Source of the DNA: an uncultured Verrucomicrobiota bacterium
GTDB lineage: Bacteria > Verrucomicrobiota > Verrucomicrobiia > Limisphaerales > CAIYYI01
DNA: 64,000 bases
Reading direction: 5' to 3'
NCBI GenBank assembly: GCA_903930345.1
Contig: CAIYYI010000230.1
Location: 9,689-73,688 of the forward strand
Numbering within the stretch: position 1 is the stretch's first letter; each line of letters opens with the position of its first letter. A program made the translations under genes and the position numbers. Under the pieces are notes generated by a model, which was not told the DNA's origin, did not search any database, and worked only from the letters and a program-made list of their open reading frames with translations. Positions 1-15,196 of this stretch are shown one piece after another.

Positions 1-756
1 GGTGCCCTGCTGCAGCGCCATGTCCGACTCCTGCCGGTTGTAGCTGTCGAGCATGTAGGATAGGCTGGTGCTGGCGTTGTTCTGGCGTTCATTCTGCATG
101 TCAAAGGCCAGAGTGCTTTCCCGTAGTGTGCTGGGGCGGGTGAAACCGGTGATGTCTTCCTCCAGGCGGGTGTAGTTCACGTGAAAGGGTAGGACCCCCT
201 CCGTGTAGCCGATCTGCCCGCCGTAACGCCGGTTGTCCACCGTCACGCGGTTGAAAAAGTCAAACTGGCGGAAGTTATGGTCCTTTTCCGCAAATATTCT
301 GGTTGCATACGGCTTTTCCTGAAGCAGTTGCAAGGATGTCTGGTATCGTTCCAGAAATCTGATTTTGGACTCCGTGCCAGAAAGGGTCAGGCCTACCGGC
401 TGATTTATGCTTTGCTGCTGCCAGCTCAGGCCATCCTCCAGCCTGACGTTGAACAGGGCCAGGTTGGGATGGTAGATGGAACCCTGCATGCCCAGATTCA
501 GCATGGGGGCCACGTACAAATAGCTGCGCTCCATGGTGCCCGGGCTGTCTTTGCGGCTGCGTATCTCTTTTTCCCCCTCCACTTCCAGTCCCAAACTGGT
601 CTCCGTGAATTGCATCCGCATCCACTGGAACTGATCCTCTTCCTCAGGCGGTTGCGCTGGGGCAATCACCACCGCATTGACCAGGAATGCCAGACACAAG
701 CTGAACCACCTTCGCCGCCACGCATTGGTTGCTGGCCTTTTCATTCTGAAGGTCAT
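1..756 (-). CDS. Putative outer-membrane beta-barrel/porin-like protein (porin-cytochrome complex type); partial, runs off the window edge
   Basis: Not in the ORF track. ATG at 756-754 overlaps the TGA of the NHL gene (ATGA coupling). The frame stays open to position 1: MTFRMKRPATNAWRRRWFSLCLAFLVNAVVIAPAQPPEEE...LNLGMQGSIYHPNLALFNVRLEDGLSW...LQLLQEKPYATRIF...GQIGYTEGVLPFHVNYTRLEE. It has a signal peptide and alternating amphipathic beta-strand-like segments. Confidence 0.75.
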   Translation of the reverse strand, partial: MTFRMKRPATNAWRRRWFSLCLAFLVNAVVIAPAQPPEEEDQFQWMRMQFTETSLGLEVEGEKEIRSRKDSPGTMERSYLYVAPMLNLGMQGSIYHPNLALFNVRLEDGLSWQQQSINQPVGLTLSGTESKIRFLERYQTSLQLLQEKPYATRIFAEKDHNFRQFDFFNRVTVDNRRYGGQIGYTEGVLPFHVNYTRLEEDITGFTRPSTLRESTLAFDMQNERQNNASTSLSYMLDSYNRQESDMALQQGT

Positions 757-1919
757 TGGCTCTGCCCGAAACCATAGACGCTGACTTTCCTGCTCCCGTA
801 CTGGTTGACGGCCAGAACCAGATACTCCAGCTTGAAGTTGGGGGCGGCATATTTCTGGAAGTAAGCCAGATGATCGTAATCGATGATGACCTGGGTGGGC
901 AGATCAAGCGGGACTGCACTCCCGCCGCTTTCGCCGAAGAACATCAGGACCTGCCCCTCCGGATTGAAAATCTGGATCACCTGGGCGGCGGCGTCCACCA
1001 CGTAGAGTCGTCCTTCACGGTCCACCGCCACGCCCTTGGGCCGCGCAAATTCCCCGGGCCGATCCCCTGAGCGTCCATAGGCGCGCAGGAATTTTCCCTC
1101 CGCGTTGTATTTTTTGACGAAAAAACCACCCATGTCAGACACGTACAACTGGTTCTGGGAGTCCAGAGCCAGGTTGGCGGGGGCGAATAATTTGGCCGAT
1201 GCATCCTGTCGGTCGCGTGGGATCTGAAACAGTGGTTGACGGTTGGTCTTGGTGTACACCTGAACGCAGTTGTTGTTCAGATCCGTCACATAGAGGCGAT
1301 CGCTCGAAATCGCCACATCCGTGGGCCAGATGGGCTTGAGTGTTCCTGGCGTTGCCGCAGCATTCGTTTGCCATTTGGCATCCCCTGCCGATTTCTCCCC
1401 GATGGCACCCAACAACGTTTCGTCAGTCGCGAAAATGAGGATTTGATTGTGGCCGCGGTCCGCCACATAACGGGTGCCGTCCTGATCCAGGCGGATGTTG
1501 ATCGGCGTGTGCAGGAACTTGTCGATCGTCGAATCAAGGTAGTAGAGTTTCCTTAGCCCCAGATCCAAAATGGAAATGCCGCGGCGGCCGGTGTCGCTGA
1601 CGAAGATTTTTCCGTCCCACAAGGCCAGTCCATAAGGCTTGAACAGTGACCGTTTGGGCGCTTCCTTTCCCACCAGGAACCGCGCAAATTTGTTCGGGGC
1701 CGCGCCCAAGTCCCCGTCATCGGAAAAGCTGGTCAAATACTGCAGGCGTGGTTCTGCGGGTGCCGGGGGGTAGAATATGGGCGCGGCGACCGGAGTTTTC
1801 TTTTTTGCGCCCGGTTTGGCTTCGGCTGCTGGCAAAGCCTTGGGTTGGATCAGACCAAATGACAAGACCGCGACCACAAGCCATCCGGTCAGCCGCTGGC
1901 TGATTTTGGGTGTTCTCAT
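753..1919 (-). CDS. NHL-repeat beta-propeller protein, exported
   Basis: Signal peptide followed by repeated P-x-(G/N/D)-(L/V/I)-A-(L/V)-D...(L/I)YV-x-D motifs (e.g. FARPKGVAVDREGRLYVVD). ATG at 1919; the track's start at 1922 is TTG. Confidence 0.9.
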   Translation of the reverse strand: MRTPKISQRLTGWLVVAVLSFGLIQPKALPAAEAKPGAKKKTPVAAPIFYPPAPAEPRLQYLTSFSDDGDLGAAPNKFARFLVGKEAPKRSLFKPYGLALWDGKIFVSDTGRRGISILDLGLRKLYYLDSTIDKFLHTPINIRLDQDGTRYVADRGHNQILIFATDETLLGAIGEKSAGDAKWQTNAAATPGTLKPIWPTDVAISSDRLYVTDLNNNCVQVYTKTNRQPLFQIPRDRQDASAKLFAPANLALDSQNQLYVSDMGGFFVKKYNAEGKFLRAYGRSGDRPGEFARPKGVAVDREGRLYVVDAAAQVIQIFNPEGQVLMFFGESGGSAVPLDLPTQVIIDYDHLAYFQKYAAPNFKLEYLVLAVNQYGSRKVSVYGFGQSQ

Positions 1920-2047
1920 CAAGGTTTTAGCAGAGTCGTTAAGATTCTCTGGGGCAGTATCCTAGGAGGGTTACTGCATCCGGGCGCACGAGTTTGCGAT
2001 AGTGTTCTTGAGTGCTTGATCACGTCGTTGCAGTGGCATGTTAAACC

Positions 2048-2086
2048 GGGGGAAGAGGGTGGCCAACTATGCCACCCTCCCCCCCC
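2048..2086 (-). terminator. GC-rich stem-loop downstream of the tetraheme cytochrome gene (partial terminator or mRNA-stabilising hairpin)
   Basis: GAGGGTGGC-caactat-GCCACCCTC, extended by G/C runs. Only a short T run follows on the minus strand. Confidence 0.45.
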
Positions 2087-2135
2087 TCGATCAGAGAGGT
2101 AATTCGCCGAAAACAACCGGTATTGTCAGCCCCGG

Positions 2136-2771
2136 TTACTTGATGTGGCATTTCAGGCACAGCGCGCTGCCAGTGTTTGCCATGCGTAGAAAGGGAGGGA
2201 ATTCATTGTTGTGGACCTGGTGGCAGGAAGCACATTCTACTTTGCCCGCAAACAGCGGAACCTTGCCTAGAGCATCCACCTTGCTGGCCGAGGTTGGTGA
2301 GACCAAGGCTCCATCGTCGCCAGCCAGTTTGGCATCGTAGAGAAAGGAGATGGGGTGGTCATTGGATAAATCGGTTCCCACCACGTTGGTGCCGGTCATG
2401 GGCGGTTGGGTTCCACTTTTTCCGCCAAACGAATCCATGGCGACCGTGCCATCATGGCAGCTCAGGCAGAGTTTGGAGGAACTGCTCGGAGAGCCAACGA
2501 CTGCGTTTAGCGTCGGGCTGACCGTGGCATCATATACCTTGAATGCGACCGTCGATGTCACTTTGTGGTTCCACAAAGGAGCATCCTTGACGGTGGTATC
2601 AGAATTGTGCGGCGTGTGGCAGAAGATGCAGAGTTCATCGGTGCCCCAGCCTTTGACCGAGAGATCGTGCTTGGTGCCAGATATGCCTGCCGCCGCCTGC
2701 AGGGCGGTGGGGGTTGCTGCCAGCAGCGCCAAGGCTGCGGTTAACATCAATAATTGCTTTACGTTTTTCAT
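2136..2771 (-). CDS. Tetraheme c-type cytochrome, OmcE-like (cytochrome nanowire family)
   Basis: Signal peptide and four CxxCH motifs (CIFCH, CLSCH, CASCH, CLKCH). The motif string TKHDLS..CxFCHTPHN..PLWN..CxSCHDG..GTDLSNDHP..PLF..ECxSCHxVHxN..PFLR..GSxLCLxCHxK matches the G. sulfurreducens OmcE sequence as recalled. Confidence 0.85.
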   Translation of the reverse strand: MKNVKQLLMLTAALALLAATPTALQAAAGISGTKHDLSVKGWGTDELCIFCHTPHNSDTTVKDAPLWNHKVTSTVAFKVYDATVSPTLNAVVGSPSSSSKLCLSCHDGTVAMDSFGGKSGTQPPMTGTNVVGTDLSNDHPISFLYDAKLAGDDGALVSPTSASKVDALGKVPLFAGKVECASCHQVHNNEFPPFLRMANTGSALCLKCHIK

Positions 2772-2816
2772 ACTTGGATTGGGTTTTGGTTCGGTTGAAT
2801 CATGCTGATGCTGAGA

Positions 2817-3326
2817 TTACGGTGCTTGTTTGGGGCGGGTTCGCGGTGCGCGTTTGGCTGGCTTCGGTGCGGTTTTTTCCACGGTTTGTGCATGGCAACG
2901 GGCTTCGGTCCGCTTGTCCAGACCGGCAATGCCGTTGGTAATGACTTCCGCCAGAGTGGCGTTCGTCATTGCTTCACGAAGCCGTCCTTTGGTTTCTGTC
3001 CAGAGGTCATGGGTGGGACAGATATGTTGTGAGTTGCACTCCCTCAGGCCCAGCAGGCACCCGCCCAACCATGATTTTCCCTCCACCGCCTCCACGATCT
3101 CTATCAAGGCGATGTCTTCCGCTGGCCGCGCCAGACCAATGCCGCCGCTGTGCCCTCGTTTGGTGGTCACCAAGTTCTTTTTGGTCAACAGGTTGATGAT
3201 TTTGGCGAGGTATGGCTTCTGAATGCCCGTGAGGTCCGCCACCTCCCGGATCAATAGAACCCGGTCGGTGCTCAGACAACTGAGCGCGTGGATGGCATAG
3301 CCGGTGGTTTGTGACAAGCTAAGCAT
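2817..3326 (-). CDS. Rrf2-family transcriptional regulator with IscR-like Fe-S ligands
   Basis: Winged-HTH Rrf2 pattern (YLAKII..L...LV...RG.SGG..LARPAEDI.L.EIVEAVEG) and C-x6-C-x5-C-x2-H (CLLGLRECNSQHICPTH). Confidence 0.9.
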   Translation of the reverse strand: MLSLSQTTGYAIHALSCLSTDRVLLIREVADLTGIQKPYLAKIINLLTKKNLVTTKRGHSGGIGLARPAEDIALIEIVEAVEGKSWLGGCLLGLRECNSQHICPTHDLWTETKGRLREAMTNATLAEVITNGIAGLDKRTEARCHAQTVEKTAPKPAKRAPRTRPKQAP

Positions 3327-3357
3327 GTTGACTCGTGCCTTTAAATACCAAAGAGGA

Positions 3358-3395
3358 CTTGATTATCAAGATTAAAGATGATAAATCCGTCATCT
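3358..3395. promoter_or_regulatory. Candidate operator palindromes in the divergent rrf2/cytochrome promoter region
   Basis: CTTGAT-T-ATCAAG (3358-3370) and AGATGA-N8-TCATCT (3376-3395) in an AT-rich intergenic region, 30-70 bp upstream of the rrf2 start. Confidence 0.45.
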
Positions 3396-3527
3396 AACGA
3401 CACTGTGATCCAAACTTTGCTGAAGCTGGCGGTAAACGCGTGACATCCTATGCTTCCATTGCACCGGTTGAAACGGGCTTAACTGAGCCTCGTCCGGGGA
3501 AACCATTCGCTTAAACATAAGACACAC

Positions 3528-5999
3528 ATGTTGAGGCAGATTTCATTCCATCGTCTCGTTAGCCGACCGTCTTTCCCGTCCCTGTTCTTGTTTCTGACCC
3601 TGGTCATGGTCAGCCTGGTGGTTGCCAGTGACCCTCCTCACGACGAGGATTGTGTAGCGTGTCACCTGACCCACAACTCCCTCGGGGGAGGTTTGGGGAG
3701 CGTGGCGGGCAATGCCAATTTGTGCATCAGTTGCCACAATTCGAAGGGAACGGCTTCCGCCAAGTCCTTTGCGGACAGCCAACAGGCCTTGTCCTGGCCA
3801 GGTCTTCCGGTGGGAACCAACGCCATGGGGACATCTCACCGCTGGGATGTGGGCATGGTCGGTCGCATTCAATTTTTGGGAGGTGCGGCGATACGTTCCA
3901 CCGGAACCATCAAGCCAGCCGGTTCATACACTGGGGTTTATCCAAAAACCTACACCCTCACGATTGCCACCGCCGGGAATGTGAATGGGGCCCGTTTCAA
4001 TTGGTCGGCCACCACCCCCGGGGGGGGGAGTGGAGCTCTGGTTCTGGCCCGAGCCAACGTGACCTTGAACGAGGGGATCTTCGTTTCCTTTAGTAACAGC
4101 GTTGATGCTGTTAACGCGTTTCAGGTGGGCGACACATGGAACATCTACGTGCGATCTGATCTTCGCAATCCGACCAATTCGGCCATGTTGACCCGGTTGG
4201 ATAATGGCCGGGTCACTTGTTCCACCTGCCACGATGCGCACAGTCAGGCCGATGCGCCCTTCGACCCCAAAGCCCCGGCCTATGCCGGGGTGGGCACGGG
4301 GACCGGACGGCATTTCATGCGCATCAGCAACAACGTGGAACAAATGTGCGTGGATTGCCATGCCGTGCGGAATGTGACCAATTCCGTTGCCGGTTCGCAT
4401 CCGGTGGGCATGGTGTACGCCACCAACGCCTTCTACAAATTCACCACCAATCTGCCGTTGGAAAAAGTGACCGGCAAAATCAGGTGTCTCACCTGCCACA
4501 AGATCCATTTTGCCCCCTCCAACGATGGTGATCTGCTGGTGATGACCAATGCCACCGCCATGTGTGCCGAATGCCACACCCTGGCCGACCGAACCTCTCC
4601 GGCAGTCCACCTCAGTGCCACGAATGGAATGACCCTTTGGCCCGGTGGCCAATATGGTGGCACTTTCCCACAGCGCACCAACGCGAGCGATCGGGGCAGT
4701 TGCATGAATTGCCATGATCCCCACGGGTGGCCGGATACGGCGAATCCCACCACCCATTACCCCAAGCTGCTCGTGGATCAGGAGGAAAACCTCTGCTATG
4801 CCTGCCACGATGCCAATGGACCGGCCCTGAAGAATGTGAAGGATGATTTTGCCAAAGCCAGGCGGCATCCGATCGGGGATTCCGATTCCCTTCGCCGGGC
4901 CGGGCGCTCGGTTGAATGCAGTGATTGCCATAACACCCATCGGGCCATGGTTGGATCGCATGTTTATACCAATACCGCCACCGCCACCCGGAACCTCATT
5001 AGCAACCCGCTCAAAGGGGTGTCGGGTGTGTCGGTGAATTACACCGGTTTGGGGAATTTTGTGGCCCCCACAACGAATCTGTACACGGCTATCCCCAAAT
5101 CGGTGGGGGCCACCTACGAGTACCAGATTTGCTTCAAGTGCCATACCGCCTATTCATTCGGGAGCACACCCCCTCCGGGACTTTCCCCTGTTTACAGCAC
5201 CGGGACGGCCTCGTTCACCACCGGATCAACCAACGTCGTCGGTGCCTCCACAACTTGGAGGGCATCCATGGTGGGAATGTGGATCGTGCTGACGAGTGAT
5301 CCAACCAATGCCTATCGCATAACGGTGGTGACCAGCACCACCAGCATGACGGTGACCCCGGCCTTTGCGGGTGCCTCGGTTGCCGGCCAGGCTTACACCA
5401 TCGTGGGCGGAACCGACGTGGCCCAGGAGTTCAGCCCCATGAACCGGTCGGGGCACCCGATCATGACCGGCCTGGACAACTATCCCAATTCCACTGCTGT
5501 TTCAGGCAAAAAAGGGCTTTTGGCTGCGGCCTTGAAGGTGCCGTGGAACAGCAGTATTGGTCAGCAGACGATGATGTGTTCTGATTGCCACAACACCGAT
5601 GGGGCCTCCCCGGCAGCGCAGGGACCGCATGGGTCAGCCGCGCAGTATATGCTGCGGGGGGCCAACGCTGCCAATTGGCCCAATATCACCCTGGCGAATT
5701 TTAACACCAGTTGGTGCGCCAACTGCCACAACAACGCCGCTGGTTCTACCCACACCCGGGGCGACCACACCGGCCGGCAATGTTACCAATGTCACATCGT
5801 GATTCCGCACGGCGGCAAGCTTTCCCGGCTCATGGCGGATCATGACACGATGCCTGGTCGATATGCCTATAACGGCACCACGAACAATCAGTACATGCAA
5901 AGTTTCACCAAAGCGACGACTGGCGGGTATGGGGAAAGCAATTGCAAGGCGCAATGTGCCAGCGAACACAGAAATCGAACGCCATCCGAAAACTGGTGA
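3528..5999 (+). CDS. Large exported multiheme c-type cytochrome (13 CxxCH)
   Basis: Signal peptide; CVACH, CISCH, CSTCH, CVDCH, CLTCH, CAECH, CMNCH, CYACH, CSDCH, CFKCH, CSDCH, CANCH, CYQCH, plus a terminal CKAQCASEH. Confidence 0.93.
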   Translation: MLRQISFHRLVSRPSFPSLFLFLTLVMVSLVVASDPPHDEDCVACHLTHNSLGGGLGSVAGNANLCISCHNSKGTASAKSFADSQQALSWPGLPVGTNAMGTSHRWDVGMVGRIQFLGGAAIRSTGTIKPAGSYTGVYPKTYTLTIATAGNVNGARFNWSATTPGGGSGALVLARANVTLNEGIFVSFSNSVDAVNAFQVGDTWNIYVRSDLRNPTNSAMLTRLDNGRVTCSTCHDAHSQADAPFDPKAPAYAGVGTGTGRHFMRISNNVEQMCVDCHAVRNVTNSVAGSHPVGMVYATNAFYKFTTNLPLEKVTGKIRCLTCHKIHFAPSNDGDLLVMTNATAMCAECHTLADRTSPAVHLSATNGMTLWPGGQYGGTFPQRTNASDRGSCMNCHDPHGWPDTANPTTHYPKLLVDQEENLCYACHDANGPALKNVKDDFAKARRHPIGDSDSLRRAGRSVECSDCHNTHRAMVGSHVYTNTATATRNLISNPLKGVSGVSVNYTGLGNFVAPTTNLYTAIPKSVGATYEYQICFKCHTAYSFGSTPPPGLSPVYSTGTASFTTGSTNVVGASTTWRASMVGMWIVLTSDPTNAYRITVVTSTTSMTVTPAFAGASVAGQAYTIVGGTDVAQEFSPMNRSGHPIMTGLDNYPNSTAVSGKKGLLAAALKVPWNSSIGQQTMMCSDCHNTDGASPAAQGPHGSAAQYMLRGANAANWPNITLANFNTSWCANCHNNAAGSTHTRGDHTGRQCYQCHIVIPHGGKLSRLMADHDTMPGRYAYNGTTNNQYMQSFTKATTGGYGESNCKAQCASEHRNRTPSENW

Positions 6000-6041
6000 C
6001 AAAGTGCGACTAATTCCCATGAGCATCCCGAAAAGCATCCC

Positions 6042-7976
6042 ATGATCGGCACTGCAAAGCGATTCCTGCGTTCGCCCCGCGTCATTGTGGCCGAGTTGGC
6101 CGGTCTGGCGCTGTTGTGCGCGCTGGGTGCCAGTCTGCCGCAGTCCGGTACGGCTACCCCGGCCGAACTCGCCCGTCTGCATGAAAGTGGCCCGTTCGTG
6201 GTGGCGCTGGTTGAAACCTTCGCGCTGGACCACATTTTTCGCAGCCCCCTTTTCATGGCGCTGACGTTGCTGTCCGCCGTCTCACTTCTCGTCATCGTCA
6301 TCGGCCAGGTGAAACGGCTTCGATCACAGTGGTTTCAGCGGCTTGGCCCCGCCCAGTTTCAGTCGGCTCCGTTCCGGGTGCAGTTTGAACGGCCAGCCAG
6401 GTTGCCCTTGGGCCAGGCGACCACCAAGGTGTGGTCGAAAAACCGCCTCGGTTTGGCTGGCTCAGCCATCTTCCATACCGGGCTGCTGCTTGTCATGCTG
6501 GCCGGGGTTTTGCGCGCTCTGTTTGGGGCGGATGCGGTCGTTGATCTGTTTGAAGGGGAGACGCTGCCTCCGACGGCCCGGGCGTGGGCGGCCCAATGGC
6601 CAGGCCTTCTGGCCAGGCCCGTCCAATTTGAGGAATCGTTGACGCTCAACCGGGTCCACGTTTCCCGCTATCCCTCCGGGGATCTGAAGGAGTTGACGGT
6701 CAACCTTGAGGCGCGCCGTCCGGAAGGCGTTGAAAAGGTCGATCTGGCGGTGAATCATGATGCTCACCTTGCGGGCCAGCGTCTTTTTCTCGGCCGCGAG
6801 TTCGGCCCAACGGTTTTTGTTGAGTGGCAGAACCACGGCGGGTCCTCTGCCCGGCAGGCCGTGCTGCTCGCGCCAGGGAACGAGGGCGTCTTTGAGGGTT
6901 GCTCCATCGGCCCGGGCAATTTGCGGGCTTACTTGCGGACCGTGGGCCGGTCGGCCGGCGACCACCCCACCACGGTGGAGGTGCGCGTGATGAAGGACAA
7001 TGCCCTCCTGTTTTCCGGGGATACGCGGGTTCAGGAATCCGTCAGCCTGTTCGGCGGGGACCGGCTGGTGTTGCATGGGGCTGCCTTCTGGGCCCGCCTG
7101 CGCGGCAGTCGTGATGGCGCGCTTTGGCTGGCTTACACCGGTTTTGCCCTGGTTCTGGCGGGCATCACCCTCATTTTTTGTGTGGTCAGGGTGGATGGCT
7201 GCCTGGTTGTCACCCCGGCGGGAGACTGGGAATCGGTTTTTCTTGCCGTGCGACCGCAGCGTTTTTCTGCAGCTTACGGTGATTATTTTCGCAGTCTCGT
7301 GCGCCAACAGGGGGGGGATCCCGGAACGGAGCTGCCACCAGGTGCCGCTCCGGCGCGTTCCCCTGATGCGGCCAAGGTTCCCACACCGATGGATGGTCCG
7401 CCGCAGCGCTCCCCGGTGGAATTAAGCGGGGCAACGCCCCGCCTGGCTGCCTGGATTTTGCTCGGGGTTTGTCTGGCTGCCCTGCCGGGATGTCAGCGGT
7501 CTTCCATGAAGGAGGCCCGGCAGCTGGTGGAGCGCTATAATCAGGTGGTGTCTGAAGCCTATCGGCGCGGGGATGTCCGGCTGATTGATCCGGTCGTTGG
7601 CCCCAATGAGGGACGGAAGCTGACCGGGTTGATCGGGGTTCGCACCGATCTGGGTATCACCTTGGATTCCCGGCTGCTCTCCCTCCTGGTCACCCATGTG
7701 GATGTGGTGGCGGACGAGATGCGGGTGCACACGAAGGAGCGGTGGCATTACCGTGATCTCAGGATCGGCACGGGCCAGCAGGTGGGGGAGGAATCACTCG
7801 ATGCCTATGAGATGCTCTACATTTTCAAACGCATCGACAAGGCGTGGCTGGTGGACGAGATTAAGTTTGCCTCGCCGCCGCAGGTGGGCCGCAAGAAAAC
7901 CCCCTGGGTTGCGGATCGCCAGGACGCGCACGCTTTGGGTGGCCCGTCCCAGGGCGGGGAGGGGAGACAGCCATGA
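6042..7976 (+). CDS. resB: Cytochrome c biogenesis ResB/CcsB-like protein fused to a C-terminal lipoprotein-like domain
   Basis: N-terminal TM helices with GASLPQ, IFRSPLF and IFHTGLL (conserved His), a large soluble domain, then TM DGALWLAYTGF. A Pro-rich linker and a hydrophobic stretch ending in LAALPGC follow. The gene sits directly before ccsA. Confidence 0.75.
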   Translation: MIGTAKRFLRSPRVIVAELAGLALLCALGASLPQSGTATPAELARLHESGPFVVALVETFALDHIFRSPLFMALTLLSAVSLLVIVIGQVKRLRSQWFQRLGPAQFQSAPFRVQFERPARLPLGQATTKVWSKNRLGLAGSAIFHTGLLLVMLAGVLRALFGADAVVDLFEGETLPPTARAWAAQWPGLLARPVQFEESLTLNRVHVSRYPSGDLKELTVNLEARRPEGVEKVDLAVNHDAHLAGQRLFLGREFGPTVFVEWQNHGGSSARQAVLLAPGNEGVFEGCSIGPGNLRAYLRTVGRSAGDHPTTVEVRVMKDNALLFSGDTRVQESVSLFGGDRLVLHGAAFWARLRGSRDGALWLAYTGFALVLAGITLIFCVVRVDGCLVVTPAGDWESVFLAVRPQRFSAAYGDYFRSLVRQQGGDPGTELPPGAAPARSPDAAKVPTPMDGPPQRSPVELSGATPRLAAWILLGVCLAALPGCQRSSMKEARQLVERYNQVVSEAYRRGDVRLIDPVVGPNEGRKLTGLIGVRTDLGITLDSRLLSLLVTHVDVVADEMRVHTKERWHYRDLRIGTGQQVGEESLDAYEMLYIFKRIDKAWLVDEIKFASPPQVGRKKTPWVADRQDAHALGGPSQGGEGRQP

Positions 7977-8800
7977 CCCCATTTACCCGGGAGGTTATCC
8001 TCCACTGGAGCGCCGTGGCTTTGTACATCGCCGGCACCATTGGTTTTGCCTACGCTCTGATCTTTGCCCGGCCCGAAAAGGTGAGGGGGGCTCTGTGCGT
8101 GACGGCGGCCGGCCTGGTGCCGCACACGCTGGCGCTCGTCCTCCGCTATGTTCGGGTTGGCCATGGCCCTTACATGCTCAAGTACGAGGTGCTTTCTTCC
8201 AATGCCTGGATCGCCATCGCCATGCTGCTGCTGTTTGTCTGGCGGCGGCCCGCCTGGGCATCGGTGGCGCTCATCGCGTTGCCGGCCTCCATCCTGATGA
8301 TGGGGTTGGGATTGTTCACCAACCCTGAGGCCCGCAGTCTCCCCCCCTCGTTGCGCTCGCTCTGGCTGGTGTTCCATGTGCTCTTCAACAAGCTTGCAGT
8401 GGGCGCATTCGTGCTCGCGCTCGCCTCGGCGGTGGTGCTGCTCCGGAAGCTCCGGGGTGCCACCGGTCGGTGGTTGGATCGTTTGCCCGGGTCCGAGGTG
8501 GTCGAGGTCTATATGGTCCGTTTCATTGGTTTCGGCTTTGTTTTTTGGACCACTACCATCGGGGCCGGGGCCATCTGGGCCAACCAATCGTGGGGCCGTT
8601 ATTGGGGCTGGGATCCCATTGAAACCTGGTCCCTCGTCACCTGGCTGGCCTACGCCATTTTGCTGCACGCCCGCCTGTTTTTCCGGCTGGGTGGCCGTGC
8701 GACGGCCTGGGGCACCGTGGCCTGCTTTGTTCTGTCCATCCTGACGGTGCTGATTTTCCCCTTTGTATTTCCGTCCATGCATTCCGCCTATTTCCAATGA
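7973..8800 (+). CDS. ccsA: Cytochrome c biogenesis protein CcsA/ResC (system II heme lyase)
   Basis: WWD motif WANQSWGRYWGWDPIETW, conserved His in WLVFHV, LLHAR and SMHS, multiple TM helices, and an ATGA overlap with resB. Confidence 0.93.
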   Translation: MTPFTREVILHWSAVALYIAGTIGFAYALIFARPEKVRGALCVTAAGLVPHTLALVLRYVRVGHGPYMLKYEVLSSNAWIAIAMLLLFVWRRPAWASVALIALPASILMMGLGLFTNPEARSLPPSLRSLWLVFHVLFNKLAVGAFVLALASAVVLLRKLRGATGRWLDRLPGSEVVEVYMVRFIGFGFVFWTTTIGAGAIWANQSWGRYWGWDPIETWSLVTWLAYAILLHARLFFRLGGRATAWGTVACFVLSILTVLIFPFVFPSMHSAYFQ

Positions 8801-10242
8801 TGAAACCGCGCCCCGAAATATTGCTGGTGACCCCCCCGTACCATTCGGGCGTGGTGGAGTCGGCCGGCTCCTGGCTGCCGCTGGGGCTGCTTTACGTGGG
8901 CGGGGCTCTGCAAAAAGCGGGCTTTGGGGTGGCGCTCTACGACGCCATGACCCGGTTCGACACGCTGGATCAGGTCCGGGCCACCTTGCGCCGGGAACGG
9001 CCGGATGCGGTCTTCGTTTCCTGCATAACGGCCACGGTTCTCGATGGCATTGAGGTTTGCCGGGTGGCGAAGGAGGAGGCCCCCGGCACCCTTACGGTCC
9101 TGGGCAACACCCATCCGAGTTTCATGTACGAGGAGATTTTGCGGGAGTATCCCGAGGTGGATGTCATTGTGCGCGCTGAGGGCGAAGAGACGTCGGTGGA
9201 GCTTATGCAGGCCTGGCAGGCGGGGGCTGATCTTTCTCGGGTCAGTGGCATCGCCTTTCGCCGGGATGGCCGGGCTTTTGCCACGCCTCCCCGCTGTTTC
9301 ATTGCCAACCTCGACCCGCTGGAGCCAGCTTGGGATCTGGTGCCATGGAAGGAGTACAGTTACCGGCCCAAACCCGGATCGACTTTGGCCGTGGTCTCCT
9401 CCTCCCGGGGCTGTAAGCAACATTGCTCTTTTTGCTCCCAACGCCTGTTCTGGAAGGAGTCATGGCGCGCGGTTTCCGCCGCTCGTTTTGTGGATCAGCT
9501 CGAGATGCTGCGGTCGCGTTACGGCGTCGATGTGGCCATGATTGCCGATGAGATTCCGTCCGTCGATCCCGTGCGCTGGAGCCGGATCCTGGATTTGTTG
9601 ATTGAGCGCGATATGGGCACTTCCCTGATGCTCGAGACGCGGGTCGAGGACATCATCCGTGATGCCGCTTTGCTTCCCCGGTATCGCCAGGCGGGCATTG
9701 AGCACATTTACGTGGGCGTCGAATCGGTCAACCAGGCCACGCTCGATTTGTTCAAGAAGGACGCCAAGGTTGAACAGGGCAAGCGCGCCATTGAGCTGAT
9801 CAATGAGCACCAGATGATTTCCGAGACCTCCTTCGTCATGGGCATGCCCGATGAGACCATCGAAAACATGCAGCACACCATTGAGCTGGCCAAGTTTTTC
9901 GATCCCGACATGGCCTTTTTCCTCGCCATCACTCCCTGGCCTTACGCGGATCTGTACCAGGATGTGAAGGATCACATCGCCACGCGGGATTATCGCAAAT
10001 ACAATCTGGTTGAGCCGGTCATCAAACCGGTCTCCATGTCGCTTGATGATGTGCGGGAGCAGCTTTTCCGGGGGTTTCGCGAGTTCTACCACAACAAGAT
10101 GAAAGGCATGGCCGCCATGCCGCCCTGGAAACAGCAGTTCATGAAAACCCTGATGAAGCTGCTGATGGAACATTCCTATCTGAAGGATCAGATGGCGGGC
10201 CTGGGTCATCCACTGCCGGAGCACCCTGGCCCTGGAGCTTGA
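8797..10242 (+). CDS. Cobalamin-binding radical SAM enzyme (class B methyltransferase/BchE-like fold)
   Basis: N-terminal B12-binding domain (PLGLLYVGGAL..GNTHPS..DVIVRAEGEET), SRGCKQHCSFC (CxxxCxxC), GVES and GMPDET. ATGA overlap with ccsA. Confidence 0.9.
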   Translation: MMKPRPEILLVTPPYHSGVVESAGSWLPLGLLYVGGALQKAGFGVALYDAMTRFDTLDQVRATLRRERPDAVFVSCITATVLDGIEVCRVAKEEAPGTLTVLGNTHPSFMYEEILREYPEVDVIVRAEGEETSVELMQAWQAGADLSRVSGIAFRRDGRAFATPPRCFIANLDPLEPAWDLVPWKEYSYRPKPGSTLAVVSSSRGCKQHCSFCSQRLFWKESWRAVSAARFVDQLEMLRSRYGVDVAMIADEIPSVDPVRWSRILDLLIERDMGTSLMLETRVEDIIRDAALLPRYRQAGIEHIYVGVESVNQATLDLFKKDAKVEQGKRAIELINEHQMISETSFVMGMPDETIENMQHTIELAKFFDPDMAFFLAITPWPYADLYQDVKDHIATRDYRKYNLVEPVIKPVSMSLDDVREQLFRGFREFYHNKMKGMAAMPPWKQQFMKTLMKLLMEHSYLKDQMAGLGHPLPEHPGPGA

Positions 10243-10248
10243 GGCGCA

Positions 10249-12015
10249 ATGAACAATCGCCATCAATGTGTTATGCATGACCATACTAAAACGGCCAGGC
10301 CGTTCGGGATGACTCCGCCAGCCGGGGCACGGCTTCTCTTTGCAAACCGGGTTTCGGCTTTCAGCCGGCTGCTCCGCGCCGGGTGCTGCCTGGTGGTTTG
10401 GCTCTTCTCGGCAGCCTCAATGCGCGCTGAGACCCCCTTGGTGGCTTCCTTGGGCGCGTATCGCGGGAGCCTCCAGGCCCCTGCCTGCGTCGCTGCGGAT
10501 GCGGCTGGGTACCTTTATGTCACGGACCCTCAGGCCGGCCAGGTGGTGGTATTCGATGGTTTTGGGCGGGTGGCGCAGGTCGTTCCCGGCTTCTCCGGTC
10601 CGCTGGGAATCGCTTTGGATGCCAATGGGCAGATTTATTTGTCGGAAGCGGCAAGCGGCAGTGTGACCGTCTTTGATGCCCAGTGGCATCCCCTGTACAA
10701 GCTCGGTGGCGGCGACCATGAGTTCCTCTTGCCAAACTACCTGGCCTTGGATCCCGCCCCGGGCAGTGCGGCGGTTTATGTTTCGGACAGCAAGGCCAAC
10801 CTGATCAAGGTTTATCGTGCCGGAGCGTTTGATTTCAGTTTTGGCGGCAAGGGCACCAATGATGGGCAGTTCAATTTCCCCACCGGTTTGCACCTCGCCG
10901 CCAATGGTGAGGTTTTTGTGGTGGACCAGAACAATGAACGCGTTCAGGTCTTTGGCCGGAGCGGTGATTTTCGGCGCTCATTCTCCTTGGTGACCCCGCT
11001 TGGTGGAATGGGGTTGGGTTCGGCTGGGGGGCGTTCTCAGGGCATCACCGGTGACCCATTGGGGCGTCTTCTGGTGGCAGATTCCTTTCAAGGTTTTGTG
11101 CGGGTGTTTGATGCGCAGGGCAATTATCAGGGACGCTTTGGTGGACTGGGGGAATTGCCCGGCCAGTTTGGCACCCCGTTGGGGTTGGTCATGGATGGGT
11201 GTGGCCGGCTTTTTACCGCTTCCGCAAACAATGGGCGCGTGGAGGTTCTTGGTCTGGACGGCTTCGCGCAGTTCAGCGCTGTCCCTGCCCAGCAGGTGGT
11301 TTGTGCCGGCACCAACGTTGCGTTTTCGGTGACCGTCACCAACCCCGGTGTCTGCACTTTCCAATGGCGCAAGGGCGCCAGTCCATTGGGGGATGGGGGT
11401 GTTGTTTCCGGAGCCACTGGCCTGGTGCTCAATCTTGTCGGCGTTTCTCCGGCGGATAGTGGGCAGTACTCCGTGCAGGTAACCGGGCCGGGGGTGGATC
11501 TGACCAGCCCGGCGGCAAATCTCACCGTGCTTCTCCCGCCCACCATTCTCAGCTTTTCGTCCAGCCAGACGGTGATCTTTGGCACCAACGTCACTTTCGC
11601 TGTGGGTGTCCTGGGGGAGGCCCTGTCCTACCAGTGGTTCTTCAGGGGGTATCCGATGGATGGGGCCACGGGTTCATCCCTCACGCTGCTCAACGTCCAG
11701 CCCGACCATGCTGGGGCCTATTCTGTGGAGGTGAGGAATTCGGTGGGGGCGGCGGTGAGTCCGGTGGCGCAGCTTGCTGTCCTGGTTCCGCCCGGCCCGC
11801 CGAAAATCGAATCCAGCATCCTCCTCCCGGGTGTGGGTGTGCAGCTCACCATCAATGGTGATATGGGCTACTCCTTCTGGATTGATGGAGCGAACAATCT
11901 TGCGGATTGGGTGGCCTTGACGAACATCGTCAATGAAACCGGGTCCCTGGATGTCGTGCTGCCGTTGTCCACGAATTTTCCGAACCAGTTTTACCGTATG
12001 CGCTGGATGCCGTGA
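10249..12015 (+). CDS. Exported NHL-repeat protein with two Ig-like domains and a C-terminal FYR module
   Basis: NHL repeats (GQFNFPTGL..EVFVVDQNNERVQVF), two Ig domains (FQWRKG..DSGQYSV; YQWFFRG..HAGAYSV) and a C-terminus NQFYRMRWMP. The start codon is uncertain. Confidence 0.85.
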   Translation: MNNRHQCVMHDHTKTARPFGMTPPAGARLLFANRVSAFSRLLRAGCCLVVWLFSAASMRAETPLVASLGAYRGSLQAPACVAADAAGYLYVTDPQAGQVVVFDGFGRVAQVVPGFSGPLGIALDANGQIYLSEAASGSVTVFDAQWHPLYKLGGGDHEFLLPNYLALDPAPGSAAVYVSDSKANLIKVYRAGAFDFSFGGKGTNDGQFNFPTGLHLAANGEVFVVDQNNERVQVFGRSGDFRRSFSLVTPLGGMGLGSAGGRSQGITGDPLGRLLVADSFQGFVRVFDAQGNYQGRFGGLGELPGQFGTPLGLVMDGCGRLFTASANNGRVEVLGLDGFAQFSAVPAQQVVCAGTNVAFSVTVTNPGVCTFQWRKGASPLGDGGVVSGATGLVLNLVGVSPADSGQYSVQVTGPGVDLTSPAANLTVLLPPTILSFSSSQTVIFGTNVTFAVGVLGEALSYQWFFRGYPMDGATGSSLTLLNVQPDHAGAYSVEVRNSVGAAVSPVAQLAVLVPPGPPKIESSILLPGVGVQLTINGDMGYSFWIDGANNLADWVALTNIVNETGSLDVVLPLSTNFPNQFYRMRWMP

Positions 12016-12075
12016 GCAGTGATGATGCAATGTTTTAATATTGACACTCGGTTAACTAATAATAACGCTAAAGCT

Positions 12076-13395
12076 ATGAACCTTGGCAAATCCTCTGTCT
12101 TTGTCACCAAAGACCTTCTGACCAATAAGTTCCCCCTCGCTTCTATTACAATGGTTTTCGCTGCCCTGCTGGGGGTCAGTCTTCCCGCGCTGGGTCAGTC
12201 TGATCAGACCTATGGTTTTGTTGGTTTCGCTGGCTTCGCTGGCTCACCTGGCAGTCTTGATGGCGAGGGCAGTGCCGCACGATTCAACTTTCCCGCCGGG
12301 GTGGCCTTGGATATTTCCAGCAACTTGGTGGTGGCGGATTTTGGCAATCACACCGTTCGGATGGTCTCCTCCGCTGGTGCGGTGACGACTCTGGTGGGCA
12401 CCGCAGGGATTTCCGGCACCAACAATGGGACGGGCGGTGCCGCCCGGTTCAATCATCCCTTCGGCGTGGCTTTGGACCGCAGTGGGAATATTTTTGTGGC
12501 CGATTCGGACAATCATACAATTCGGAAAGTGACTCCCGCCGGGGTGGTCACAACGCTGGCGGGAAGTGCCGGTACTTCCGGCACCAACGATGGGGTCGGC
12601 CTTGCCGCCTTGTTCAGCCATCCTTTCGGTTTGGCGGTGGATGGGGCGAATAATATCTTTGTGGCCGATTCCGACAATCACACTATCCGGAAGATAACCC
12701 CGGCGGGCGTGGTCACGACTTTTGCGGGCAGCCCGGGGATGCCAGGAGCCATTGATGCTGCAGGAGGCGATGCGAGGTTCAATCACCCCTCTGGCGTGGC
12801 TGTGGACAGTCAGGGTAACGTGATGGTGGCGGATAAAGGCAATTTTACGATTCGGCGGGTGACCACGAATGGGGTGGTGACCACTCTGGCCGGATTGGCG
12901 GGTTATTATGGTCGGATGGATGGAACGCGCAGTGTGGCGCGTTTTTATGATCCGTCGGGGGTGTCTGTGGATGCCGCAGGCAACGTGTTTGTGTCGGAAT
13001 TCGGTAACACGATCCGGAAGGTGACCCCGGCCGGGACGGTGTCGAGTTTGACAGACGGCGCCGGCCCGCTTGATGCACCCCAGGCTGTGGCTGTGGATGC
13101 TGCCGGCGTTCTTTTTATCGCCGATTCCTTGAACAATCGCATTGTCAAAGGTCGGCTCGGTGGGTTCGGTGGGATCTCGCCATCGTTGAGGGTGGCTCTC
13201 TCCGGCGGTCGCGCCAACGTGTCTCTATCCTGGCCCCCAAGTCACCTCGGCTGGGAACTGCAAATGACGACCAACTTGTCCGGCGGGGGGCTCACCACCG
13301 CTTGGACTCGCGTGGTCGGCTCCACTGGCGGCACCAACTTTTCCCTGCCCAATAACCCAGCCAATCCCGGCTTTTATCGGCTAAAAAGTCCGTAG
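12076..13395 (+). CDS. Exported long-repeat NHL (teneurin-like) protein with a C-terminal FYR module
   Basis: About five ~55-aa repeats (G.G.AARFNHP.G(V/L)A.D..GNIFVADSDNHTIRKVTPAGVVTT.AG) and a C-terminus GWELQMTTNL..W..GFYRLKSP. ATG 12076 was chosen because it lies downstream of a TTGACA at 12041. Confidence 0.85.
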   Translation: MNLGKSSVFVTKDLLTNKFPLASITMVFAALLGVSLPALGQSDQTYGFVGFAGFAGSPGSLDGEGSAARFNFPAGVALDISSNLVVADFGNHTVRMVSSAGAVTTLVGTAGISGTNNGTGGAARFNHPFGVALDRSGNIFVADSDNHTIRKVTPAGVVTTLAGSAGTSGTNDGVGLAALFSHPFGLAVDGANNIFVADSDNHTIRKITPAGVVTTFAGSPGMPGAIDAAGGDARFNHPSGVAVDSQGNVMVADKGNFTIRRVTTNGVVTTLAGLAGYYGRMDGTRSVARFYDPSGVSVDAAGNVFVSEFGNTIRKVTPAGTVSSLTDGAGPLDAPQAVAVDAAGVLFIADSLNNRIVKGRLGGFGGISPSLRVALSGGRANVSLSWPPSHLGWELQMTTNLSGGGLTTAWTRVVGSTGGTNFSLPNNPANPGFYRLKSP

Positions 13396-14851: not shown

Positions 14852-15196
14852 GATGCTGGAAACAGGTTGAACCATTCCTGGTGCCAACCGCCAGCAAAAA
14901 AGCCCCTCTGGATTGATCCAGCGCCATGGTTTTCTCCCAGTGCCCATTGCGGAAACTTGCGAGATGGGTTGCTGCCAATTCGGGTGGTGGGCGCGGTGCG
15001 AGCGAGGCGGCATCCCCGCCGCAGGCTGTGACGAGCGAGCAGCAAGGCCGGCCACCCTAAGGGCCAAGCGCCCGCTCGCACTTTTCAGCCTTACCCCGGT
15101 TTTTATTGCGCCACCCAACCTTGGCTGGTACGTTCCAGCAGCCTTGGATCTAGTATTCCTACTATTTCCATCATAGCTGTGGTATAAAATATATTT

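Follow-up and report, generated by a model that had tools for sequence, protein, structure and literature searches.

A putative OmcE-type nanowire island with its own predicted cytochrome maturation genes in a lake-water Verrucomicrobiota genome

Results

Gene content and extent of the island

The DNA analyzed here (the window) is a 64,000-nucleotide stretch of a 75-kb contig, C230, from G000, a lake-water Verrucomicrobiota metagenome-assembled genome (MAG) that is 89.9% complete and 5.9% contaminated. Positions 1-13395 of the window hold ten ORFs in two divergent strings. On the minus strand, reading away from the spacer, lie the genes for an Rrf2-family regulator (2817..3326; Pfam Rrf2, E 9.4e-28), a secreted tetrahaem cytochrome homologous to OmcE (2136..2771), an NHL beta-propeller with a signal peptide, NHL_b (753..1922; Pfam NHL, E 2.4e-22), and a 675-aa outer-membrane beta-barrel, likewise with a signal peptide, whose first 252 codons occupy 1..756 and which continues upstream to L001:8417. 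On the plus strand, a cytochrome with 13 CXXCH motifs, c13 (3528..5999), is followed by a 644-aa ResB-like system II protein (6042..7976), a CcsB/CcsA-type haem-handling subunit (7973..8800), a BchE-like B12-binding radical SAM enzyme (8797..10242), an NHL propeller with two Ig-like domains (10249..12015; Pfam NHL, Ig_3 and I-set) and a third NHL propeller (12019..13395; Pfam NHL, E 1.8e-34). A control region of 201 bp and 45% G+C (3327..3527) separates the strings, and ATGA overlaps join three gene pairs: propeller/barrel, ResB/CcsB and CcsB/radical SAM. This layout, including a promoter region of about 200 bp and the overlaps, is as the original prediction, made from the sequence alone, had described it. 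The island had also been thought self-contained within 1-13395, which does not hold: the leftward operon has four further genes beyond the start of the window. Retrieval of about 8 kb of upstream flank, suggested at the time as a way to look for more multihaem genes, recovered the remainder of the barrel, a second NHL propeller (NHL_a), an 11-haem cytochrome (c11) and a 23-haem membrane protein (cbc23), all in the leftward operon. As now delimited, the island spans C230:1606-23083, about 21.5 kb.

The tetrahaem protein is an OmcE homologue

The 211-aa tetrahaem protein has a signal peptide and four CXXCH motifs, at residues 48, 102, 180 and 205. It matches solved OmcE structures end to end, both that of Geobacter sulfurreducens (PDB 7tfs_A; E 1.3e-30 over residues 9-211) and that of the Desulfuromonas soudanensis OmcE bundle (9yuq_N; E 2.2e-26), sharing with them a tetrahaem subunit of about 200 aa and its eight haem ligands. 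The latter comprise the four CXXCH motifs and four distal histidines, H35, H55, H139 and H187, which are invariant in alignments of 13 and 35 rows and align with histidines in 7tfs; in an OmcE-type filament, one of the four serves the haem of the neighboring subunit. We regard the protein as a putative OmcE-type filament subunit, with polymerization, export and expression not shown. A filament had been part of the original prediction, and an OmcE homologue is indeed encoded; what had been missed is that the tetrahaem protein is the candidate subunit. Directly 3' of the omcE stop codon, on the same strand, RNA folding predicts a hairpin (2040..2135; -46.8 kcal/mol, z -3.95) that only 1 of 200 shuffles equalled in stability. 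It is possibly a partial terminator setting a high ratio of subunit to accessory proteins, a function that is inferred only.

Barrel, propellers and upstream cytochromes

No Pfam or NCBIfam family matched the 675-aa barrel protein. An AF2 model of its full length, built from a 32-row alignment, is an all-beta barrel with 35 strand elements (pLDDT 88.4, pTM 0.77), which upholds its earlier description as barrel-like. The best fold match in the PDB is MtrB (6r2q_B; E 4.9e-9, TMq 0.40), and a TM-score of 0.40 supports no more than a common fold class. We propose that the barrel serves as an export pore or anchor. The island shares with the MtrCAB and OmaB-OmbB-OmcB conduits a large outer-membrane barrel and multihaem cytochromes, but differs from them in its NHL propellers, its OmcE subunit and its roughly 35 strand elements. 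Assignment as an MtrAB-type conduit was rejected, with TIGR03508 scores of 63.5 and 51 bits against a cut-off of 192.2 and no membership of the barrel in the MtrB sequence family. Of the two propellers, NHL_a carries a Cys behind the signal peptide and NHL_b has no lipobox Cys, so lipidation of both is unsupported.

The upstream cytochrome c11 contains 11 CXXCH motifs and one CX3CH motif, the latter C-terminal and invariant. Its N-terminal ~200 residues form an OmcE-like module, the head being 51% identical to the OmcE of the window and the profile matching 7tfs at E 1.9e-48 over profile positions 5-210. The c11 of a Geobacter MAG is likewise OmcE-headed (36% identity, E 3e-29). The AF2 model of the head is poor, with residues 36-162 below pLDDT 50 and a fold match to 7tfs of only E 5.6e-3. 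The other upstream cytochrome, cbc23, is a 1325-aa inner-membrane protein in which a cytoplasmic BrxC-like AAA+ ATPase is followed by a cytochrome b with five TM segments and then by 23 periplasmic haems in repeated triplets. Against PADLOC BrxC, the ATPase portion gives E 1.2e-151 over profile positions 1-466 of 1231. We rejected cbc23 as a full four-domain BrxC/DUF6079 protein since only profile positions 1-472 of 1238 match, the rest of the protein being cytochrome b and haem domain. Five further full-length homologues keep the fusion along with the Walker A and Walker B motifs; the cytochrome b domain scores below the curated equivalog cut-off. A literature search returned no paper linking a BrxC/DUF6079-type AAA+ ATPase domain to cytochromes.

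The rightward string and its regulator

c13 is interrupted by two non-haem inserts and carries at its C-terminus a conserved Cys..Cys..His...E-x-W tail, and comparison with the PDB found no solved relative; its orthologues, 45-62% identical, occur only in PVC-type extended clusters. The ResB-like protein matches Pfam ResB in its N-terminal half only (residues 16-250; 75.3 bits against a cut-off of 24.6) and carries a conserved extra C-terminal domain after the fifth TM segment. That tail has no Pfam match, and the orthologues are 43-50% identical over residues 6-637, with the C-terminal 160 aa 56% identical in G442. CcsB clears the cut-off of Pfam Cytochrom_C_asm (E 2.2e-32; 112.9 bits against 29.9), falls below that of TIGR03144 (144.2 against 187.6) and is 73-77% identical in G366, G441, G442 and G449. 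Elsewhere in G000, a ResB and a CcsB are found on C240 and a third Cytochrom_C_asm protein on C62, so the maturation machinery predicted for the island takes the form of a private second ResB/CcsB pair.

The radical SAM enzyme scores 413.6 bits against TIGR02026 (BchE), below the cut-off of 481.35. Its identity as BchE, the anaerobic Mg-protoporphyrin IX monomethyl ester cyclase, was rejected on that score, on its cytochrome neighbors and on the lack, in a genome 90% complete, of any BchM/ChlM reaching the cut-off of 158.9 bits (best score 39.4). A modification-type B12 radical SAM enzyme, as had been predicted, is present, and its substrate is unknown. The enzyme is 76-78% identical in four other genomes, where its gene also adjoins ccsB, and metagenome loci of at least 5 kb with a relative carried a multihaem ORF or ccsB in 12 of 12 cases at 74% identity or more and in 7 of 7 cases at 50-57%. 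This repeated association with system II and multihaem genes, in the PVC clade and in the 50-57% group alike, suggests that cytochrome c maturation includes a step not yet described. Orthologues of the NHL-Ig protein (43-48% identical) follow the radical SAM gene in G366, G441 and G449 and represent the last conserved gene of the module. No orthologue of the third NHL propeller was found at the same position in these three genomes, and its membership of the island is uncertain.

The Rrf2 protein scores above the TIGR00738 cut-off (97.2 bits against 73.3), and C90, C97, C103 and H106, read from the translation, correspond to IscR-like ligands of an Fe-S cluster in a CX6CX5CX2H motif. A regulated island, as originally proposed, is supported to this extent, with expression not shown. 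The divergent region contains a 13-bp palindrome, CTTGAT-T-ATCAAG, whose role as an operator is inferred only; a sigma-70 consensus search of the 201 bp found none. An rrf2 gene sits beside omcE in just one (L016) of 80 other loci.

Synteny with omcE clusters

We compared the island with the 80 best loci containing OmcE relatives, counting matches to complete ORFs only. On these strict counts, omcE was found in 70 loci, NHL_b in 59 (downstream of omcE and 34-53% identical), c11 in 49, NHL_a in 42, the barrel in 29 and all five in 16; by tblastn, barrel orthologues were present in 49 of the 80. The sub-orders omcE-NHL_b-barrel and NHL_a-c11 were always retained in this sample. Loci carrying the labels of about ten phyla repeat the core order omcE–propeller–barrel / propeller–11-haem, among them one of a Geobacter MAG (L077) with the same arrangement. 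Because of this recurrence, the island belongs to a known kind of omcE cluster and is not unique, and the lineage is less exceptional than first implied. G000 lacks one small gene, for a 5-7-haem protein, that lies ahead of the barrel in G366, G263, L038 and the Geobacter MAG.

What looks new, judged from gene order and homology, is a PVC-specific extension, 13-haem–ResB–CcsB–BchE-like B12 radical SAM–NHL/Ig. Four other Verrucomicrobiota/Kiritimatiellia genomes have this extension, collinear with the core. Across those four, CcsB and the radical SAM enzyme are 73–78% identical and the barrel 27–36%. In G366, the genes of both strings form a single run on one strand, and the arrangement is similar in G441, G449 and G442, from which we infer that the two divergent strings of G000 belong together.

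Petersen et al. (2026; PMC13712944) describe a minimal omcE cluster in which OmcE and a large barrel are accompanied by two propeller lipoproteins and two multihaem cytochromes, and name five host phyla, Verrucomicrobiota not among them. G000 has the large barrel and two NHL propellers, one of them with a Cys following the signal peptide, and exceeds the two extra cytochromes with c11, cbc23 and c13. It shares with the published clusters the propeller, large barrel, second propeller and 11-haem cytochrome, with resB/ccsB nearby, and this common order supports the conduit that had been predicted. In contrast to them, G000 lacks the small 5-haem gene before the barrel and the glycosylation gene block, and adds the module of 13-haem cytochrome, private ResB/CcsB, BchE-like enzyme and NHL-Ig protein, the ATPase-cytochrome b-23-haem gene and the Rrf2 regulator.

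Discussion

Cytochrome nanowires have been solved from few organisms, and it is not settled how such wires are initiated, anchored and supplied with electrons. Verrucomicrobiota, for their part, are viewed mostly as polysaccharide degraders. We infer from sequence comparison that G000 encodes all the components of an OmcE-type haem nanowire and of the electron path feeding it, with neither expression nor filaments shown, and consider it probable that this one ~21.5-kb island encodes filament, conduit and private maturation, functions that remain inferred. Every element of the overall inference drawn at the outset (a regulated conduit, a filament, maturation and modification) has support from homology or synteny. 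The presence of an OmcE cluster in Verrucomicrobiota may mean that these bacteria exchange electrons with particles, humics or partner cells as part of their lake ecology.

In the pathway we envisage, electrons from quinol would enter the cytochrome b/23-haem protein and travel along periplasmic haems to c11, the OmcE-headed cytochrome stationed at the barrel. c11 would then serve as the base or tip of the OmcE polymer, joined to it through the inter-subunit His-haem contact that OmcE itself uses. The private ResB/CcsB pair would load the 51-52 haems, the radical SAM enzyme may modify a haem or a cytochrome, and Rrf2 would couple expression to iron or redox state. Two parts of this scheme are tentative, and we would not be surprised to see either fail: that the radical SAM enzyme and the private synthase yield an altered haem c or a side-chain-modified cytochrome, for which the C-terminal CX3CH of c11 and the conserved tail of c13 are candidate targets, and, separately, that c11 is the tip or anchor subunit of the nanowire. 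According to the 2026 structure paper (PMC13712944), OmcE operons offer no tip-like candidate. With an OmcE module at its N-terminus and a place in omcE operons across phyla, Geobacter included, c11 is a concrete one.

NrfI and CcsA1 of Wolinella are dedicated system II synthases for special haem sites. The island resembles them in having an extra CcsB/ResB pair beside presumed client cytochromes, but none of its cytochromes examined has a CXXCK or CX15CH site, the candidates for a special site being the CX3CH of c11 and the Cys..Cys..His tail of c13, and its synthase is paired with a B12 radical SAM enzyme. Among inner-membrane quinol oxidoreductases, those of the CbcL type in Geobacter join an FdnI/HydC-like cytochrome b to a multihaem c domain. 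cbc23 shares this combination with the CbcL-type enzymes (named in PMC12977616) but reverses the domain order, arranges its 23 haems in triplets and begins with the BrxC/DUF6079-type ATPase; this fusion of a BREX-type AAA+ ATPase with a cytochrome b/23-haem protein is an architecture so far unexplained. From the same phylum and also from lakes, He et al. (2017; PMC5615132) reported putative clusters of porin genes with adjacent multihaem genes, in which a porin of 20 strands or more is paired with a periplasmic eight-haem cytochrome, and proposed electron transfer to humics. They record no homologues of Geobacter outer-surface cytochromes in their MAGs, whereas the present island is OmcE-based.

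The sequence does not reveal whether electrons flow outward, for reduction, or inward, for uptake. The same machinery might take up electrons from Fe(II), reduced humics or a partner cell, or link cells in aggregates, instead of respiring insoluble acceptors. We think this unlikely but a serious contender, since close relatives of the cluster occur in MAGs labelled as sulfur or iron oxidizers (Thiodiazotropha, Woeseiaceae, Thiobacillaceae, Thioalkalispiraceae), the PVC clade of c11 has a gammaproteobacterial sister group, and cell-cell exchange through OmcE bundles is argued in PMC13712944. Physiological data on OmcE, as reviewed in PMC12307469, concern only Fe(III) oxide reduction and DIET in Geobacter, and the quinol-oxidase-like cytochrome b/multihaem module is equally compatible with outward flow. 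It is less likely again that no filament is made at all, the tetrahaem protein carrying electrons in the periplasm, either soluble or associated with a membrane, and the barrel and cytochromes making up an ordinary porin-cytochrome conduit. OmcE-like proteins are very common (7171 at E <= 1e-10 among 8000 scored), they need not all form wires according to PMC13712944, and an Mtr porin is the best fold match of the barrel. Yet all eight ligands of the solved subunit are retained, the tetrahaem gene has the barrel and propeller neighbors that the same paper uses as its criterion for wire-forming homologues, and no MtrA/DmsE-type decahaem exceeds its cut-off (TIGR03508, 63.5 bits at best). Nearer to the layout first imagined, c13 could make the filament with the tetrahaem protein as an accessory; c13 is a large protein with non-haem inserts, heads the rightward operon and is conserved alongside the private maturation genes. 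We give this little credence, because the solved wires are OmcE homologues and c13 has no solved relative, because its middle varies, or is split, from one orthologue to another, and because it is missing from most omcE clusters, being full-length in 1 of 80 loci (L069) and reaching 59% coverage in L031.

A further alternative is that the contig is a binning contaminant, or that it was recently acquired from Desulfobacterota, in which clusters of this kind are routine. The contamination estimate of the MAG and the patchiness of the cluster, with the barrel in 3 of 401 genomes of the phylum sample and OmcE in 5 of 41 of the order sample (G000 included in each), leave room for this, but we consider it very improbable. 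The same contig encodes an AspS for which 7 of the 11 rows carrying an organism name, at 84-86% identity, name Verrucomicrobiae, Pedosphaera or Verrucomicrobiota, and by this marker the contig is Verrucomicrobiota; the host is that originally predicted, and the deltaproteobacterial one that would have refuted the prediction is not indicated. The best 80 loci include 10 labelled Verrucomicrobia and 2 labelled Kiritimatiell*, whose c11 proteins in the tree form one clade. The clade containing the query has 11 rows (7 labelled Verrucomicrobiota, 2 labelled Kiritimatiellota, the query and G366; SH-aLRT 96) and stands apart from Geobacter and Desulfocapsa (SH-aLRT 96 and 99). Over the whole c11 tree, phylum labels change 12 times, against a mean of 30.3 when shuffled.

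The island is an omcE-type gene cluster, probably for a nanowire, that reaches beyond the window

The island belongs to the known omcE kind of nanowire gene cluster; its function, the direction of electron flow and the formation of a filament are inferred only. The genes originally listed for positions 1-13395 agree with the open reading frame map obtained here with Pfam and NCBIfam annotation, and the claimed ATGA overlaps are present, joining three gene pairs. On the minus strand lie the start of a signal-peptide protein without a family (1-756), an NHL propeller (NHL_b, 753-1922), a cytochrome with four CXXCH motifs (2136-2771) and rrf2 (2817-3326). The plus strand carries a cytochrome with 13 CXXCH motifs (c13, 3528-5999) and genes for a 644-aa ResB-like protein (6042-7976), a CcsB-like protein (7973-8800), a B12-binding radical SAM enzyme (rSAM, 8797-10242), a protein with an NHL and two Ig domains (NHL-Ig, 10249-12015) and a further NHL protein (12019-13395). 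Contrary to what had been supposed, the island is not self-contained within the window, which spans positions 9689-73688 of contig C230 in the query genome (G000); the 9.7 kb preceding it carry further island genes. A search of this flank for multihaem genes, which the original prediction had envisaged, found two. In the coordinates of the query locus with its flank (L001), the minus strand bears the remainder of the first gene, which encodes the barrel (8417-10444, 675 aa in total), a second NHL propeller whose signal peptide is followed by a Cys (NHL_a, 7330-8415), an 11-CXXCH cytochrome of 579 aa with an additional invariant CX3CH (c11, 5594-7333) and a 1325-aa protein with 23 CXXCH motifs (cbc23, 1606-5583). 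Beyond cbc23 the coding strand switches at a peptidase M14 gene.

The closest relatives of the tetrahaem protein (211 aa) place it with known nanowire subunits. Among all PDB sequences it matches the Geobacter sulfurreducens OmcE nanowire subunit 7tfs (E 1.3e-30) and, over nearly its whole length, the 218-aa multihaem cytochrome of the 16-chain entry 9yuq (E 2.2e-26). Judging by its title and chain count, the latter entry is presumably the OmcE bundle of Desulfuromonas soudanensis described in PMC13712944, for which the accessible part of that paper gives an EMDB code. All four CXXCH motifs are invariant in alignments of 13 and 35 rows, as are H35, H55, H139 and H187, which align with histidines in 7tfs. 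The OmcE-like family is very large, with 7171 proteins at E <= 1e-10 among 8000 scored. For the barrel, an AlphaFold2 model built on a 32-row alignment is all-beta (pLDDT 88.4, pTM 0.77, 35 strand elements) and indicates a large outer-membrane barrel. Kinship with the Mtr porin MtrB is not shown, because MtrB, the top PDB fold match (E 4.9e-9), reaches a TMq of 0.40 and is followed by TonB-dependent receptors, LptD and fimbrial ushers.

Distribution of omcE clusters

As described in the part of PMC13712944 available to us, a minimal omcE cluster comprises OmcE, a large barrel, two beta-propeller lipoproteins and two multihaem cytochromes, and in Desulfuromonadia resB and ccsB adjoin it. Homologous clusters are listed there in five phyla, Verrucomicrobiota not among them. 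The host phylum is not named for omcE clusters in the literature searchable here: a search for cytochrome nanowires in Verrucomicrobiota found no paper, and the matches listed for OmcE with Verrucomicrobia described no OmcE cluster of this phylum.

Representative genomes yielded at least 600 pattern stretches; a relationship was confirmed for 582 of them, and the 80 best loci were retained, many of which end at contig ends. By title, ten of the best 80 are Verrucomicrobia and two Kiritimatiell*, the others including Calditrichota, Ignavibacteria/Melioribacteraceae, Bacteroidota, Gemmatimonadota, Acidobacteriota, Planctomycetota, Omnitrophota, Bdellovibrio, Deferribacteres, several Gammaproteobacteria, Desulfobulbaceae/Desulfocapsa and Geobacter. 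We counted neighbours in these 80 of at least 582 loci both by tblastn and by a strict requirement for a complete reading frame as best match. The respective counts were 80 and 70 for omcE, 75 and 59 for NHL_b, 75 and 42 for NHL_a, 49 and 29 for the barrel, and 80 (some being cross-hits to OmcE) and 49 for c11. All five core genes occur together in 16/80, and the sub-orders omcE-NHL_b-barrel and NHL_a-c11 are invariably retained. In the order sample, OmcE matches were found in 5/41 genomes, counting the query and one weak case (G005, E 3.7e-4), and the barrel was found in 3/401 genomes of the phylum sample. The closest OmcE relative among the best 80 (63% identity) lies in a Verrucomicrobia-labelled MAG (locus L016) and is encoded by one of two tandem omcE copies.

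An 11-haem cytochrome with an OmcE-like head

Residues ~25-225 of c11 are 51% identical to the OmcE homologue of the window, and all eight haem ligands are retained in this head. A profile of the c11 family (38 members) matches 7tfs (E 1.9e-48) and 9yuq (E 1.5e-39) at profile positions 5-210. 7tfs is the sole credible PDB fold match of the AlphaFold2 model (E 5.6e-3), whose head is of low quality (pLDDT < 50 at residues 36-162) and whose confident tail is without a solved structural match. The OmcE-like head is a general feature of the 11-haem proteins of omcE operons: the one encoded in a Geobacter MAG locus (L077:16473-18146) is, over its first 208 residues, 36% identical to the OmcE of that locus (E 3e-29). 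In its accessible part, PMC13712944 takes up the question of a missing OmcE-like subunit that would act as anchor or tip, and we propose, as an inference, that c11 is a candidate for it. A complex prediction for OmcE residues 28-211 with c11 head residues 40-235, made with alignments, without haems and without controls, gave scores of 0.29, 0.33 and 0.01 (median 0.29 against a mark of 0.32) and counts neither for nor against binding. No CXXCK, CX4CH or CX5-20CH site was found in any island cytochrome, and the single CX3CH, at the C-terminus of c11, could bind a twelfth haem. An earlier description of the OmcE-like head, or of PVC homologues, in other nanowire papers or their supplements is not excluded.

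A 23-haem fusion protein

In the first 483 residues of cbc23, which lack a haem motif, DUF6079 is recognised over profile positions 1-472 of 1238 (E 3.9e-142); the PADLOC BrxC model is matched as well (E 1.2e-151), and Walker A and B motifs are present. By these profile matches, the N-terminus is an AAA+ ATPase domain of the BrxC/DUF6079 type, for which no explanation or role is evident. Residues ~490-655 give only weak, below-cut-off matches to cytochrome b561/FdnI models. The 23 CXXCH motifs fall in repeating triplets at residues 762-1317, in a C-terminal part that would be outside, given about five hydrophobic segments. We interpret the cytochrome b and multihaem c parts together as a quinol oxidoreductase of the CbcL kind. 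The whole architecture is kept in five further full-length homologues (L098, L038, L118, L120 and L124), and tblastn found cbc23 in 7/80 of the best omcE loci. The matches listed for DUF6079 are all on BREX; the one that was text-searched, a BREX survey, treats DUF6079 as canonical BrxC, with no mention of cytochromes in the part accessible to us. We found no earlier description of a fusion of ATPase, cytochrome b and multihaem parts.

A conserved PVC-type extension

The rightward genes c13, a private system II, the BchE-like rSAM and NHL-Ig form a conserved PVC-type extension of the cluster, of which no earlier description was found. In G366, which belongs to the same phylum, the genes all lie on one strand in the order omcE, a CARDB protein gene, a second omcE, NHL_b, a 7-haem gene, the barrel, cbc23, NHL_a, c11, c13, resB, ccsB, rSAM and NHL-Ig. 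The same module occurs in G441, G449 and the Kiritimatiellia genome G442 (loci L031, L021 and L069, respectively), and its place beside the core is thus not a chance of position. An rSAM orthologue (E <= 1e-60, 76-78% identity) is present in 4/15 OmcE-cluster genomes searched; in the best 80 loci, tblastn found ccsB in nine and resB and rSAM in none. Across the extended clusters, CcsB (73-77%) and rSAM (76-78%) are more alike than the barrel (27-36%) or OmcE (42-56%).

The top NCBIfam model for rSAM is BchE (413.6 bits, under the 481.35 cut-off); no BchM scored above cut-off in the genome, making a role in chlorophyll synthesis unlikely. Literature searches found no paper linking a BchE-like protein to cytochrome c, and none relevant for BchE with CcsB, radical SAM and multihaem. 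Among metagenome contigs, 141 pattern stretches gave 55 confirmed rSAM loci, which we grouped by identity. The 18 loci at >=74% include 14 with ccsB and 11 with a multihaem reading frame, one or the other being present in 12/12 loci of at least 5 kb; the corresponding figures are 5, 5 and 7/7 for the 13 loci at 50-57%, and 6, 1 and 7/18 for the 24 loci at <=49%. The middle group represents other lineages, as its G+C of 0.34-0.56 indicates. Four low-G+C contigs (L128, L142, L125 and L130) encode a 50-55% identical BchE-like rSAM beside 13-, 16- and 25-haem reading frames and ResB/CcsB, with CARDB, PMT_2 and ParA-like genes nearby.

The same genome encodes a further ResB/CcsB pair on contig C240, and its contig C62 carries a third Cytochrom_C_asm gene, so the island pair is an extra and presumably dedicated copy. 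The ResB-like C-terminus (7446-7973) adds a transmembrane segment with a lipobox-like LPGC and a ~160-aa tail. This tail is better conserved among orthologues than any other part of the protein (56% identity in G442). Neither it nor two inserts of c13 gave anything credible in Pfam at E <= 1. Orthologues of c13 are conserved in two blocks (residues ~20-555 and 629-823) flanking a variable or split middle, and in 12/12 aligned the C-terminus (5900-5999) has an invariant Cys..Cys..His...E-x-W of variable spacing (CX2-3C X2-4 H), for which a non-canonical haem site, a metal site and a radical SAM target are all conceivable. A protein-atlas search with c13 gave top scores of 0.83 and 0.81, to generic multihaem clusters and below the 0.9 lead level. 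The 13-haem proteins of L128 (beside a 51%-identical rSAM) and of the Geobacter locus were rejected as c13 orthologues, their similarity (E 7e-5 and 1e-7 in single comparisons) being at the level of haem motifs.

Host and regulation

A deltaproteobacterial host, in which such clusters would be routine, had been named among the conditions that would refute the original prediction; two lines of evidence point to the Verrucomicrobiota side. AspS, the aspartyl-tRNA synthetase encoded on the same contig (54961-56769), has many matches at 84-86% identity, and 7/11 of those with an organism name are labelled Verrucomicrobiae, Pedosphaera, Verrucomicrobiota or Verrucomicrobia, the other four bearing assorted MAG labels. 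A tree of 51 c11 rows places the query in an 11-row clade (SH-aLRT 96) with G366, seven Verrucomicrobiota-labelled and two Kiritimatiellota-labelled rows; the sister of this clade is a gammaproteobacterial group, and it stands apart from Geobacter/Desulfocapsa. Phylum labels change 12 times on this tree versus 30.3 times when shuffled. The tree comes from a quick search, has some long branches and relies on submitters' own labels. Together, AspS and the tree argue against a contaminant and against a recent origin from Deltaproteobacteria. Four DNA runs from lake water, all belonging to one study, contain about half of the words sampled from window 1-10000, and one other run contains a fraction of 0.15; these runs may be the assembly source and hence not independent. 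No RNA run was among the matches listed for this stretch.

The predicted divergent promoter spacer of ~200 bp was found (201 bp, 45% G+C) and contains a 13-bp palindrome, and a sigma-70 promoter scan of 1800-3700 gave no hits. The translated Rrf2 protein has C90, C97, C103 and H106, a spacing like that of the cluster ligands of IscR. A strong hairpin directly follows omcE and, by analogy with fimbrial operons, would suit a high ratio of subunit to accessory proteins; regulatory roles for the Cys/His set, the palindrome and the hairpin are inferences. By tblastn rrf2 was found in 1/80 of the best loci, and L016 is the sole one with rrf2 beside omcE (54% identical). Just past the island lie genes for a CotH kinase-family protein (13625-15118, minus strand; Pfam E 4.7e-43) and a 2098-aa protein without a Pfam family (15197-21493, plus strand), with no evidence that either is a member. 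The last two NHL proteins end in similar motifs, ..FYRMRWMP (11990-12015) and ..GFYRLKSP (13370-13395), possibly a sorting signal.
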